Shown here piece after piece: positions 1 through 3,096 of a DNA stretch of 3,120 nt. The translations under genes were made by a program, and so were the position numbers. Source of the DNA: Escherichia coli (GTDB taxonomy: Bacteria > Pseudomonadota > Gammaproteobacteria > Enterobacterales > Enterobacteriaceae). Every line of letters starts with the position of its first letter. Positions within the stretch are counted from its first letter, which is position 1. The stretch is taken from assembly GCF_003334815.1 (NCBI RefSeq), contig NZ_QOWO01000085.1; one strand, written 5' to 3'. The notes beneath the pieces are model-generated. The model was not told the origin of the DNA and made no database searches. It saw only the letters and a program-made list of their open reading frames with translations.

Positions 1-31
1 CGCGGTGAACAGCCCACAGGCAGCGGGGAAC

Positions 32-63
32 GGGCACCACAGGGGTGCCCTCCCGGTGCCCTC
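32..63 (+). promoter_or_regulatory. Repeat cluster upstream of the methylase gene: hairpin GGGCACC-acagg-GGTGCCC (32-50) whose right arm is repeated directly (GGTGCCCTC at 44-52 and 55-63, 11 bp apart); candidate operator or structured 5' leader
   Basis: Seen directly: 7-bp perfect inverted repeat with 5-nt loop, plus an exact 9-bp direct repeat at one helical turn spacing, about 20 bp upstream of the methylase SD. No convincing sigma70 -35/-10 is visible inside the window, so the promoter may lie upstream of position 1. Confidence 0.3.
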
Positions 64-71
64 TGTAAGAG

Positions 72-77
72 AAGGAG
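72..77 (+). promoter_or_regulatory. Shine-Dalgarno (AAGGAG) for the methyltransferase gene
   Basis: AAGGAG lies 6 nt upstream of ATG at 84. Confidence 0.6.
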
Positions 78-83
78 TTTCGT

Positions 84-767
84 ATGTCCCGTTTTGTCCT
101 CGGTAACTGCATCGATGTTATGGCCCGTATTCCTGATAACGCCATTGATTTCATCCTCACCGACCCGCCATATCTCGTCGGTTTCCGTGACCGTTCCGGG
201 CGCACCATCGCCGGCGATAAAACCGATGAGTGGCTGCAACCGGCCTGTAATGAAATGTTCCGCGTGCTGAAAAAAGACGCGTTAATGGTGAGCTTCTACG
301 GCTGGAACCGCGTCGATCGCTTTATGGCCGCCTGGAAAAATGCGGGATTCAGCGTTGTTGGTCACCTGGTCTTCACCAAAAACTACACATCGAAGGCCGC
401 ATATGTGGGCTATCGCCACGAATGCGCCTACATCCTGGCAAAAGGCCGTCCACGTCTGCCACAAAACCCGCTGCCGGACGTGCTGGGCTGGAAATATTCG
501 GGCAATCGCCATCACCCGACGGAAAAGCCCGTTACCAGCCTGCAACCGCTGATTGAGAACTTCACACACCCGAACGCAATTGTGCTGGACCCGTTTGCAG
601 GCAGCGGCTCAACCTGCGTCGCCGCCCTCCAGTCCGGACGCCGGTATATCGGTATCGAGCTGCTTGAGCAGTATCACCGTGCCGGGCAGCAACGCCTTGC
701 CGCCGTGCAACGGGCCATGCAGCAGGGGGCCGCGAATGATGACTGGTTTATGCCGGAGGCTGCGTAA
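84..767 (+). CDS. Orphan site-specific DNA N6-adenine methyltransferase, beta class (N6_N4_Mtase-type, YhdJ-like), 227 aa
   Basis: Strong SD and ATG start. Catalytic motif IV DPPY (nt 162-173) lies N-terminal to the SAM-binding motif I FAGSGST (nt 594-614), the circularly permuted order typical of beta-class amino-MTases. The C-terminal segment HPTEKP...VLDPFAGSGST...GRRYIGIE matches the conserved core of YhdJ-like and plasmid orphan adenine methylases as I recall them. No restriction endonuclease partner is present in the window. Confidence 0.9.
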   Translation: MSRFVLGNCIDVMARIPDNAIDFILTDPPYLVGFRDRSGRTIAGDKTDEWLQPACNEMFRVLKKDALMVSFYGWNRVDRFMAAWKNAGFSVVGHLVFTKNYTSKAAYVGYRHECAYILAKGRPRLPQNPLPDVLGWKYSGNRHHPTEKPVTSLQPLIENFTHPNAIVLDPFAGSGSTCVAALQSGRRYIGIELLEQYHRAGQQRLAAVQRAMQQGAANDDWFMPEAA

Positions 768-1482: not shown

Positions 1483-2259
1483 ATGAACGAAAACACAACA
1501 CTGAACGCACTGATTTGTCGTCACGCCCGCAACCTGCTGCTGGCGCAGGGCTGGCCGGAAGAGACGGATGTTGACCAGCGGAACCCGAAGTATCCGGGCT
1601 GGATCAGCATTTATGTTCTGCTGGATGCGCCCCGGCTGGCGATGTTACTCATCAACCGTCACGGCGGCGTACTGCCGCCGCTCCTGGCCTCCGCCATTCA
1701 GAAACTGACCGGAACCGGGGCGGAACTGGTACTGTCTGGCAGTCAGTGGCAGTCGCTGCCGGTACTTCCGGCAGACGGAACACAGGTGTTTTTCCCGTAT
1801 GCCGGAGAATGGCTGACCGAAGACGAAATCAGGGCAGTTCTTGATGCAGTGCGCGATGCGGTACGCAGTGTCAGTTGCCGGGTGGCAGAAGATGCGCAGC
1901 GTATCAGGGCGGCGCTGACCACAACCGGTCAGACGTTGCTGACCCGCCAGACGCGCCGCTTTCGCCTGGTTGTGAAGGAAAGCGATCACCCCTGCTGGCT
2001 CGATGAAGACGACGAAAACCTGCCCGTGGTGCTCGATGCCATCCTGAACCGGGGAGCACGTTTTTCGGCGGTGGAAATGTATCTGGTCAGTGAGTGTGTG
2101 GAGCATATCCTGTCCAGTGGGCTGGCCTGCGATGTGCTGCGTATACCGGATGAACCGCCCCGCCGGTGGTTTGACCGTGGTGTTCTGCGGGAGGTGGTCC
2201 GGGAAGCCCGGGCCGAAATCCGCAGCATGGCGGATGCCCTGGCAAAAATCAGGAGCTGA
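1483..2259 (+). CDS. Hypothetical protein, 258 aa, with an acidic patch (WLDEDDEN); function unknown
   Basis: GGGAGA SD lies 10 nt upstream of ATG 1483. It is a long ORF in the same orientation as the operon, followed immediately by an intrinsic terminator. I see no nuclease, ATPase or HTH motif by eye. The antisense ORFs 1645-2355 and 1986-2312 are low-complexity and lack RBSs. Confidence 0.7.
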
Positions 2260-2263
2260 TGAT

Positions 2264-2287
2264 GGCGGGGAAAATCCCCGCCTTTTT
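2264..2287 (+). terminator. Rho-independent terminator of the methylase-ORF2-ORF3-ORF4 operon
   Basis: GGCGGGG-aaaat-CCCCGCC (7-bp GC-rich stem, 5-nt loop) followed by TTTTT, beginning 5 nt after the ORF4 TGA stop. Confidence 0.75.
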
Positions 2288-2341
2288 CCTGCCGGTCCCG
2301 GACAGAGCACAAAGGACGTCGCCGCCGGCTCCGCTTTACCC

Positions 2342-2370
2342 GGCCATGCGGGCATGGCCTTATGGGTTTT
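2342..2370 (+). terminator. Second hairpin (GGCCATG-cggg-CATGGCC) followed by an interrupted T-tract (TTATGGGTTTT); possible backup terminator or the 3' end of a short transcript
   Basis: Perfect 7-bp inverted repeat seen directly. The downstream T-run is interrupted, so this is weaker than the terminator at 2264-2287. Confidence 0.35.
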
Positions 2371-2657
2371 CAGTTATGTGGCCTCAGCGCCGTGTGCGGG
2401 CTGTGCCGTGCCTCCATCTTAGCCGGGCTGGCGTTGATGCAAGGGTACGCTTCGCCGCTGCGGTCACCCGGTCCCTCCTTCCCGTCTGCCGTGATTTTCC
2501 GGTCGTTCGCCCGCTCAGGTTTCGCGGCCTCACCCTGCAACTCCCGCCAGCCGTGTGCGTCAGGCTGCGGCTTCCCTTGCGCCCCTGCATCCCCGCCTGT
2601 TCGCCCGGCTTTTATGGAGGCACGGCACCGCCCGGTGTCGCGGAATATGTGAACAAC

Positions 2658-2662
2658 GGAGG
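2658..2662 (+). promoter_or_regulatory. Shine-Dalgarno (GGAGG) for klcA
   Basis: GGAGG lies 8 nt upstream of ATG 2671. Confidence 0.6.
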
Positions 2663-2670
2663 AAAACATC

Positions 2671-3096
2671 ATGCAATATGCGAAACCTGTCACTCTGAAC
2701 GTTGAAGAGTGCGACCGTCTCTCCTTTCTACCGTATCTGTTTGGCAACGATTTTCTGTATGCCGAGGCGTATGTGTACGCGCTGGCGCAAAAAATGATGC
2801 CGGAATATCAGGGAGGCTTCTGGCATTTCATCCGCCTGCCGGATGGTGGCGGTTACATGATGCCGGATGGCGACCGTTTTCATCTGGTCAACGGTGAAAA
2901 CTGGTTTGACCGCACTGTGAGTGCTGATGCCGCAGGTATCATCCTGACTTCCCTTGTGATTAACCGCCAGTTGTGGCTGTACCACGACAGCGGGGATGCG
3001 GGACTGACACACCTTTACCGGATGCGCGATGCGCAGTTGTGGAGCCACATCGAATTTCACCCCGAATGCAACGCGATTTACGCGGCACTGGACTGA
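2671..3096 (+). CDS. klcA: Anti-restriction protein, KlcA/ArdB family, 141 aa
   Basis: Good SD and ATG. The protein carries the pattern I associate with KlcA/ArdB anti-restriction proteins: [11 protein letters not shown] ... EAYVYA ... [19 protein letters not shown] ... [10 protein letters not shown] ... [12 protein letters not shown] at the C-terminus. Its size (141 aa) also fits. This is recall of the family, not a database hit. Confidence 0.88.

Follow-up and report, generated by a model that had tools for sequence, protein, structure and literature searches.

The question raised by this locus is what a cluster of short repeats directly in front of a DNA methylase gene is good for. The DNA studied here, which we call the window, is a stretch of 3,120 nucleotides (nt) from an Escherichia coli contig (NZ_QOWO01000085.1); close to its beginning it carries an inverted repeat and an overlapping direct repeat, followed by the ribosome-binding region and the gene of an M.EcoGIX-type methylase. 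In a preliminary description this cluster had been interpreted as the binding site of a dimeric regulator or as a structured leader that controls the first gene of an operon. We come to a different conclusion. Very probably the ∼330 nt 5′ of the methylase gene are the published class 3 or ssp3 promoter, which works on single-stranded DNA (ssDNA), with the hairpin at the gene-proximal foot of this element. The best explanation for the repeats, which we hold with moderate confidence, is that a stem–loop at 19–60 has been conserved at the foot of ssp3 as the 5′ stem–loop of the early methylase mRNA.

The repeats themselves were recovered by a repeat search. The inverted repeat is perfect over 7 nt (GGGCACC at 32–38, GGTGCCC at 44–50) with a loop of 5 nt, and the 9-nt sequence GGTGCCCTC occurs twice without a mismatch, at 44–52 and 55–63, with a start-to-start distance of 11 nt. 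The distal copy (55–61) is an alternative partner for the left arm 32–38. How readily such repeats arise by chance was judged with 500 dinucleotide-preserving shuffles of the whole window. Perfect 7-bp hairpins with a loop of 3–8 nt are expected 1.4 times per window, and the real window yielded 9 register hits or about 6 hairpins. The shuffles contained a direct repeat of 9 nt within 20 nt in 17% of cases, and a 7-bp hairpin and a 9-mer repeat at most 30 nt apart in 5 of 500 (1%). Because hairpins and repeats also arise in shuffled sequences, the repeats taken alone are marginally beyond chance, which is suggestive and not compelling.

RNA folding showed that the palindrome is the core of an interrupted hairpin of 16 bp (19–60, plus strand). 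This extended hairpin consists of an outer stem (19–22/57–60), a middle stem (24–28/51–55), a bulge of 3 nt (AAC, 29–31) and an inner stem–loop, which is the inverted repeat GGGCACC-acagg-GGTGCCC (32–50; stem 32–38/44–50, loop 39–43). In the short RNA the TGCC of the second repeat copy (57–60) pairs with GGCA at 19–22. The predicted fold of window 18–63 has an energy of −31.3 kcal/mol (z = −3.6), which was equalled by none of 200 shuffles. The covariance models of Rfam gave no match at positions 1–100. An intrinsic terminator was not flagged at the hairpin on either strand, and CTCTGTAAGAG, which comes after the hairpin, contains no T/U run. We rejected the readings as terminator, as an element resembling repetitive extragenic palindromes and as attenuator, because there is no T-run and because the site lies downstream of a terminator-like hairpin and of the promoter.

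The comparison with related loci was more informative. We used about 165 homologous loci, comprising 120 metagenome loci, 37 loci from species-representative genomes and 6 plasmid records. For the metagenome loci the invariant beginning of the methylase gene served as anchor, and those from representative genomes were found by protein. In a tblastn search of the methylase against plasmids the matches listed all had at least 90% identity and held no distant loci; viral contigs scanned for the flanking sequence gave no match. The region 5′ of the methylase gene sorts into three types. Type A (111 loci) comprises this window, pESBL and IncF plasmids and has the inner hairpin GGGCACC-ACAGG-GGTGCCC or GGGCGCC...GGCGCCC. 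Type B (about 20 loci from Citrobacter, Raoultella, Enterobacter and Edwardsiella) has GGACGTC-GTACC-GACGTCC, and its relatives are single loci with GGGCGTC...GACGCCC (L011 and Erwinia) or GGGAGCC-GTGGC-GGCTCCC (Hafnia). In type C (several loci from Klebsiella, Yersinia, Enterobacter and Pantoea) the methylase gene is preceded by another folded element, which has a CGGCAC...GTGCCG hairpin of its own.

Depending on the lineage the left half-site reads GGGCACC, GGGCGCC, GGACGTC, GGGCGTC or GGGAGCC, with pairing kept, and the loop is free to change (ACAGG, GTACC, ATACC, GTATC, GGGGA, GTGGC). Covariation was quantified in two alignments, one of 83 distinct sequences of types A and B (A2) and one of 24 distinct sequences to which Erwinia, Hafnia and Edwardsiella were added (A3). 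In A2 the inner stem is paired in 98.6% and shows both-sided changes in 3 of 7 pairs, including an A-U to G-C exchange in 22 of the 83 sequences, and the middle stem has one compensatory pair. When the local hairpin is taken together with the long-range stems described below, A2 contains 7 double-change pairs in 70 cells, and 0 of 500 shuffles reached this for cells or score. In A3 the extended hairpin has compensatory changes in 7 of 17 pairs with 93.8% of the cells paired, and the inner stem in 4 of 7 pairs with 97% of the cells paired; none of 500 shuffles attained the observed count and the partner-slid controls gave at most 2. Because compensatory changes go along with a free loop sequence, the inverted repeat is, by the evidence of these alignments, a real and conserved helix that is selected for pairing and not for sequence.

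For the direct repeat the alignment of the homologous upstream regions gives the opposite answer, as only the pairing of the inverted repeat is conserved. In type B the first copy (GACGTCC) has diverged along with the left arm and the second copy remains GGTGCCC, so that the second GGTGCCCTC copy (55–63) is not kept as a repeat of the first. The spacing of the copies varies among lineages, and an exact deletion of 11 bp has removed one copy in one plasmid (L002) and in one metagenome contig. The arrangement of the copies on the same helical face, on which the preliminary description relied, is thus present in the window but not conserved in its relatives. The direct repeat looks like an old 11-bp duplication that has no function as a repeat and whose copies are now the 3′ partners of two different helices.

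What is the larger element to which the hairpin belongs? More than 5000 plasmid records match the window with 90–99.5% identity, mostly conjugative plasmids of E. coli, Klebsiella, Salmonella and Shigella, and by its gene order the window is the leading region of conjugative plasmids of the IncI, IncK and IncF groups. All genes of the leading region are oriented towards oriT, and therefore the minus strand of the window is the transferred strand (T-strand) as well as the template. Wen et al. (2025, Nucleic Acids Res, PMC12672017) report six operons induced in early transconjugants of pESBL, each with a large T-strand hairpin in front, and start sites mapped in pESBL by rapid amplification of cDNA 5′ ends. 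There the hairpin 5′ of M.EcoGIX, which shows early induction, is a new 'class 3' ssDNA promoter unlike any other, the hairpins of klcA and ardA form 'class 2', and both classes are conserved in F. For pESBL and F, according to the same authors, class 3 is active on single-stranded and not on double-stranded DNA, early and transiently. A ssi/Frpo site had been placed upstream of ecoGIXM (Fomenkov 2020, PMC7736820), and in a 2026 preprint ssp3 was used as a functional ssDNA promoter with a strength similar to ssp2 and without replication-roadblock activity.

The class 3 promoter of pESBL and our element share the locus, the downstream gene and a near-identical sequence including the hairpin. 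The 110 nt 5′ of the ATG are near-identical to pESBL, the full-length alignment of the window has a score of 2896/3120, and the methylase has 94.7% amino acid (aa) identity to M.EcoGIX of pESBL-EA11 (NC_018659.1). A small difference is that the second repeat copy of pESBL reads GGTGTCC, with a G·U pair and not the G-C pair of the window. The element as such has been described before; the small hairpin next to the gene, with its covariation and its relation to the start site, is absent from the accessible text of Wen et al.

The T-strand was folded over positions 5680–6085 of an IncK2/Z plasmid (L001), with −116 kcal/mol, z = −7.5 and 0 of 100 shuffles as stable. In this fold window positions 1–25 (minus strand) hold the 3′, gene-proximal arms of two long-range stems: −4 to 5 pairs with CCGCGTCCGG ∼175 nt upstream, and 14–25 (CCACAGGCAGCG) pairs with CGCTGCCTGTGG ∼200 nt upstream. 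The second of these stems has, at 14–23, compensatory changes in 3 of 10 pairs and is paired in 99.9% (A2). Positions 6–13 lie in a symmetric 8 × 8 internal loop. Opposite to it CAGTGT is near-invariant, with five of six positions invariant and the sixth at least 90% conserved in 83 sequences, and the T-strand sequence of this side is GACACT or CACACT, in which positions 2 and 6 are A and T. In addition, GTGCC of the second repeat copy (56–60) pairs with GGCAT ∼260 nt upstream, and the hairpin 26–54 is a side branch in the three-way junction of the two long-range helices.

The same principle, a folded transferred strand that mimics a duplex promoter, is used by the class 1 Frpo/ssi promoters of F and ColIb-P9 (Masai & Arai 1997; Bates 1999; Couturier 2023, PMC9849209). 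As in class 1, activity is confined to the time before complementary-strand synthesis and serves anti-defence genes of the leading region (Couturier 2023, PMC9849209). However, the class 3 fold is branched and that of class 1 a single long hairpin, and blastn with E ≤ 0.01 found no match of the class 3 element to ColIb Frpo1, F ssiD or the candidates of Samuel et al. 2024.

The layout of the element suggests where transcription might start. In all lineages (C/T)TGACC is followed by 17 nt, 6 nt and 6–7 nt and then by a hairpin that ends shortly before the Shine–Dalgarno (SD) sequence. Homologues from Achromobacter, Bordetella and Paraburkholderia (60–67% aa identity) keep the motifs TATTCCACG...(C/T)TGACC and CTTCAAGG.CTTTCGCGGCATAAAC, and the hairpin after the (C/T)TGACC core is unrelated in sequence between the lineages and kept in position. 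In the enterobacterial fold the 17 nt past (C/T)TGACC hold the second long-range stem and the next 6 nt lie in the 8 × 8 loop. We infer that (C/T)TGACC at window −15 to −10 is the −35 element and that the −10 element lies in the internal loop at 6–13, where it would resemble the pre-melted −10 of Frpo-type promoters. By comparison of the lineages the start would be at about 18–20, at the first bases of the extended hairpin.

During conjugation the minus strand enters the recipient single-stranded, the ∼330 nt 5′ of the methylase gene fold on it into the large branched stem–loop, and the host RNA polymerase, as published for pESBL, transcribes from the folded strand before the complementary strand is made. 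The RNA would lack the upstream arm, so that window 19–25 would pair with 51–60 instead and complete a 16-bp stem–loop at the very 5′ end. Such a stem–loop would leave the SD sequence largely single-stranded, would most likely protect the short-lived early mRNA from 5′-end-dependent decay (RNase E/RppH) and may help the nascent RNA to peel off a template without complementary strand. We put forward this specific mechanism, a start at about 18–20 together with a 5′-terminal stem–loop acting at the RNA level, tentatively and with chances a little below even. A 5′-terminal stem–loop is the classical protection against 5′-end-dependent decay in E. coli, and stem–loops of the type found in the ompA 5′ untranslated region are reportedly mRNA stabilisers of E. 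coli (Emory, Bouvet & Belasco 1992). With these our hairpin has no sequence relationship; the likeness is one of predicted structure in the same host, namely a stable hairpin with which the transcript begins (no more than about 1 nt unpaired) and which precedes an accessible SD sequence, and it holds only with the inferred start.

A role of the RNA form is indicated by the outer local stem 19–22/57–60, which covaries though it is incompatible with the long-range stem. Three sites have changed jointly in Hafnia, with C to A in the upstream arm, G to T at the equivalent of window 19 and C to A in the downstream copy. The pair 18/61, which is G-C in type B, has become A-U in several variants of type A. 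As mutually exclusive stems both covary, selection on both conformations is supported and hence a role at the RNA level. The wobble pair G28·U51, which exists on the RNA-sense strand only, is conserved in 80 of the 83 sequences.

Nevertheless, several points weigh against our reading. The proposed start site is a prediction from promoter geometry, and the −35 and −10 elements (GACACT/CACACT, non-template arm) on which it is built are weak matches. A linear scan of the T-strand with a sigma-70 position weight matrix prefers the conserved TACACT/TAAAAT ∼205 nt 5′ of the ATG. If this were the −10 element, the hairpin would be internal to a leader of ∼200 nt and not 5′-terminal; these top-scoring sites have poor −35 elements, however, and do not settle the start site. 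The analogous small hairpin of the class 2 element in the window is weak, in rare natural variants one pair is disrupted (T46G) or 11 bp are missing, and the asymmetry of G·U versus A·C wobbles does not decide between pairing in the RNA sense and pairing on the T-strand.

The most serious alternative, although we consider it rather unlikely, is that the hairpin acts as DNA only: as a branch of the folded T-strand it would set the geometry or stability of the promoter, exclude SSB or offer the RNA polymerase a structured downstream edge, and the RNA form would be incidental. In the T-strand fold the hairpin indeed fits between the two long-range helices without spare nucleotides, and its reverse complement is about as stable as the sense strand (−19.5 versus −20.6 kcal/mol). 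The variants G27A, G34A and G55A likewise point to DNA, as they give an A·C mismatch on the plus strand and a G·T wobble on the T-strand, and activity of ssDNA promoters depends on secondary structure (Nasim 2004, as cited in Fomenkov 2020). But a purely DNA-level role leaves the covariation of the outer stem and of pair 18/61 unexplained, as these pairs cannot form in the folded promoter, and it does not account for the conserved G28·U51 wobble of the RNA sense; moreover, other proteobacterial homologues keep a hairpin at equal distance from the core despite a different DNA fold. That the cluster is a neutral by-product, a chance palindrome and a slippage duplication in a GC-rich spacer, we regard as quite improbable. 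It is not unusual for a shuffled sequence to contain a single 7-bp hairpin or a 9-mer repeat, the 11-bp indel shows that at least two plasmids can do without the duplication, and for the direct repeat as a repeat neutrality is likely. For the helix it is refuted by the covariation in A3, and the hairpin stands at the same position across Enterobacterales with functionally equivalent hairpins in Burkholderiales. Least probable of all, and in our view scarcely tenable, is the operator for a dimeric regulator, in which a third half-site would lie at a distance of one helical turn. It owes its appeal to the perfect palindrome and the 11-bp phased repeat of the window, yet it fails because the half-site sequence is not conserved and the pairing is, because one repeat copy can be deleted and the phasing is lost, and because there is no duplex promoter: both arms change together in at least five lineages around a free loop, and no duplex sigma-70 site was found in the window or in L001 4600–6400. 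In addition, no regulator gene is annotated in the methylase operon of L001 or pESBL-EA11, and the gene is expressed from single-stranded DNA according to Wen et al. (PMC12672017).

The remaining alternative concerns the reading frame upstream. A 'hypothetical protein' of 103/104 aa is annotated in RefSeq across the class 3 promoter (L001 5697–6008, pESBL-EA11 54394–54705) and ends at window position 8. If this open reading frame (ORF) were real and co-transcribed with the methylase gene, the hairpin would be an intercistronic processing or stability signal, which we find improbable. Most type A sequences do have an open ORF of about 101–106 aa, but its span coincides with the covarying structured element and it begins inside a terminator-like hairpin (GGGCGG-GCAA-CCGCCC, then a T-run). 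A frequent 1-nt indel shifts the frame and leaves another frame open, a typical behaviour of non-coding DNA rich in GC. No counterpart exists in type B, Erwinia or Hafnia, where stop codon and frame are lost, and the IncF copies have the element but not the 5′ part of the ORF. Wen et al. (PMC12672017) treat the segment as intergenic and mapped a start site within it. The annotated 103-aa ORF is, from these comparisons, probably spurious. Its annotation leaves an intergenic gap of only ∼75 nt, so that the promoter may be hidden from searches of intergenic regions.

As to the structured leader, the preliminary description was right in that the hairpin lies in the leader of the methylase gene, but the controlling element is the ssDNA promoter of ∼330 nt, most of which lies outside the window. 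In the full-length fold this element also involves the translation signals. At the base of the giant stem–loop the ribosome-binding region (65–78, plus strand, with GAAGGAG at 70–76) has TTTTTAC and GCTCCT, which lie ∼300 nt upstream, as its partners, and SD sequence and AUG together (65–89) pair with the far-upstream start of the element (L001 5748–5781). The probability that the SD sequence is unpaired is 0.00 in the full-length RNA versus 0.36 in a transcript from window 18. This sequestration is predicted for type A, pESBL and Erwinia and is weaker in Hafnia and Bordetella; because it is absent in type B, we dropped it as a general rule. Where present, the pairing of SD sequence and AUG may be a translational lock against read-through transcripts.

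It is conceivable, but rather doubtful, that the whole arrangement is a two-state device. Window 14–25 would pair far upstream in ssDNA and form the promoter, in the RNA it would pair with 51–60 to give the 5′ stem–loop and free the SD sequence, and a read-through RNA with the entire element in it would refold as the DNA does, so that the SD sequence and AUG would be buried. If true, the device would lock synthesis of the methylase to transcripts from the ssDNA promoter, and the lock would account for the silence of this promiscuous methylase in established hosts. The 'direct repeat' would then be the footprint of a three-segment design, and the same logic would be visible in class 2 and in the homologues of Burkholderiales.

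The practical importance of the locus lies in the methylases of the M.EcoGIX type, which protect incoming resistance plasmids from restriction and whose early and transient expression depends on ssp3. By placing the repeat in a published ssDNA promoter, its pursuit as a new operator is averted. What is new here is modest: the covariation of the hairpin, the alternative pairing of three segments, the probable mis-annotation of the ORF and the class 3 motifs in Burkholderiales. Should the prediction of the start site be true, a design rule for the leaders of ssDNA promoters and a target for blocking plasmid establishment would follow.

The methylase gene (84–767, plus strand) codes for 227 aa with the motifs DPPY and FAGSGST. 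As had been proposed, it is the first gene of its transcription unit, an early (zygotically induced) operon. M.EcoGIX is a single-strand-specific N6-adenine (m6A) methyltransferase of low specificity that protects the incoming plasmid (Fomenkov 2020, PMC7736820). The gene order is identical in the IncK2/Z plasmid and in the IncI1 plasmid pESBL-EA11: impB/umuC, dinI, a DUF1281 gene, the hypothetical 103-aa ORF, the DNA methylase gene, a hypothetical gene, a DUF1380 gene, a further hypothetical gene and an antirestriction gene of the KlcA/ArdB type, followed after some distance by ssb, psiB, psiA, ardA and, further on, nikA/oriT. Between dinI and the DUF1281 gene L001, the IncK2/Z plasmid that matches the window best, carries a group II intron with an ltrA reverse transcriptase/maturase gene (2997–4721), which is not there in pESBL-EA11. 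Some contigs that carry the segment at 88–100% identity (L131, L133, L140, L153, L154, L166) are filed as Collinsella, Oscillibacter and Oscillospiraceae metagenome-assembled genomes and as a Streptomyces morookaense assembly; this is almost certainly an artefact of binning or contamination and not a matter of host range.

The window contains a second ssDNA promoter. An intrinsic terminator (GGCGGGG-AAAAT-CCCCGCC and a T-run, 2264–2282) precedes the class 2 or ssp2 promoter ('Frpo3', Frpo'4), an element of ∼330 nt at 2300–2650 (minus strand fold −112 kcal/mol, z = −5.4), and the klcA/ardB gene follows at 2671–3096. By blastn, window 2255–2675 has 82% identity to Frpo'4 of Samuel et al. 2024. 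On the T-strand the hexamers TTGCAT and TAAGAT are separated by 15 nt and face a mismatched TTTTAT (2610–2615), and just after the predicted −10 element lies a small hairpin (CGGCACC-GCCC-GGTGTCG, 2623–2640) with a weak fold. Class 2 (klcA/ardB and ardA) shares with class 3 the layout of terminator, folded element of ∼330 nt, SD sequence and gene, but by blastn its interior sequence is unrelated to that of class 3. The two also differ in that ssp2 is a UvrD-resolved replication roadblock in F and ssp3 is not a roadblock (2026 preprint). A scan of the window with Rfam yielded a single sub-threshold match on the minus strand at 2260–2359, AS-pc01 (RF02875, antisense RNA of plasmid pHK01). With 26 bits versus a gathering score of 79 (E = 0.099) this match, which overlaps both the terminator and the class 2 element at its 5′ end, is not significant.

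The class 2, class 3 and type C elements all start just past the terminator with AAGGAYGTCGC-N5-7-CTCC(G/T)C and have otherwise no similarity. This boundary motif was located at L001 5748–5775, at window 2312–2335, in three type C loci (L047, L041, L123) and in a type B locus (L022). Within the motif it is CTCC that pairs, at the foot of the fold, with the SD sequence of the gene that follows; its other part is GATGTCGC.

Type C resembles Frpo*3 and Frpo*1 of Samuel et al. 2024 (blastn). An orthologous methylase gene (73–93% aa identity) stands behind such a class-2-like element in Klebsiella, Yersinia, Enterobacter, Lelliottia, Cedecea, Pantoea and S. arizonae (L134–L141, L144, L146, L147, L155, L165; L041, L047, L054, L107, L123), and the homology breaks at the small hairpin and the SD sequence. 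Since a class-2-like element replaces class 3 before the same methylase gene, ssDNA promoters behave as exchangeable modules. The class 3 motifs TATTCCACG..CCTTGACC and CTTCAAGG.CTTTCGCGGCATAAAC were also found in Achromobacter and Bordetella petrii (L156–L158, L161) and in Paraburkholderia (L162–L164), at loci with a large T-strand fold of −111 to −120 kcal/mol. By its motifs and fold this promoter class extends well beyond IncI/IncF plasmids.

A further hairpin of the window lies at 1442–1467. It is perfect and GC-rich with 9–10 bp (ATCGCCGCC-TCCG-GGCGGCGAT), has no T-run and sits in a gap of 45 nt between the stop of the DUF1380 gene (1437) and the start of the next ORF (1483), where it may be an intercistronic stability or processing element.

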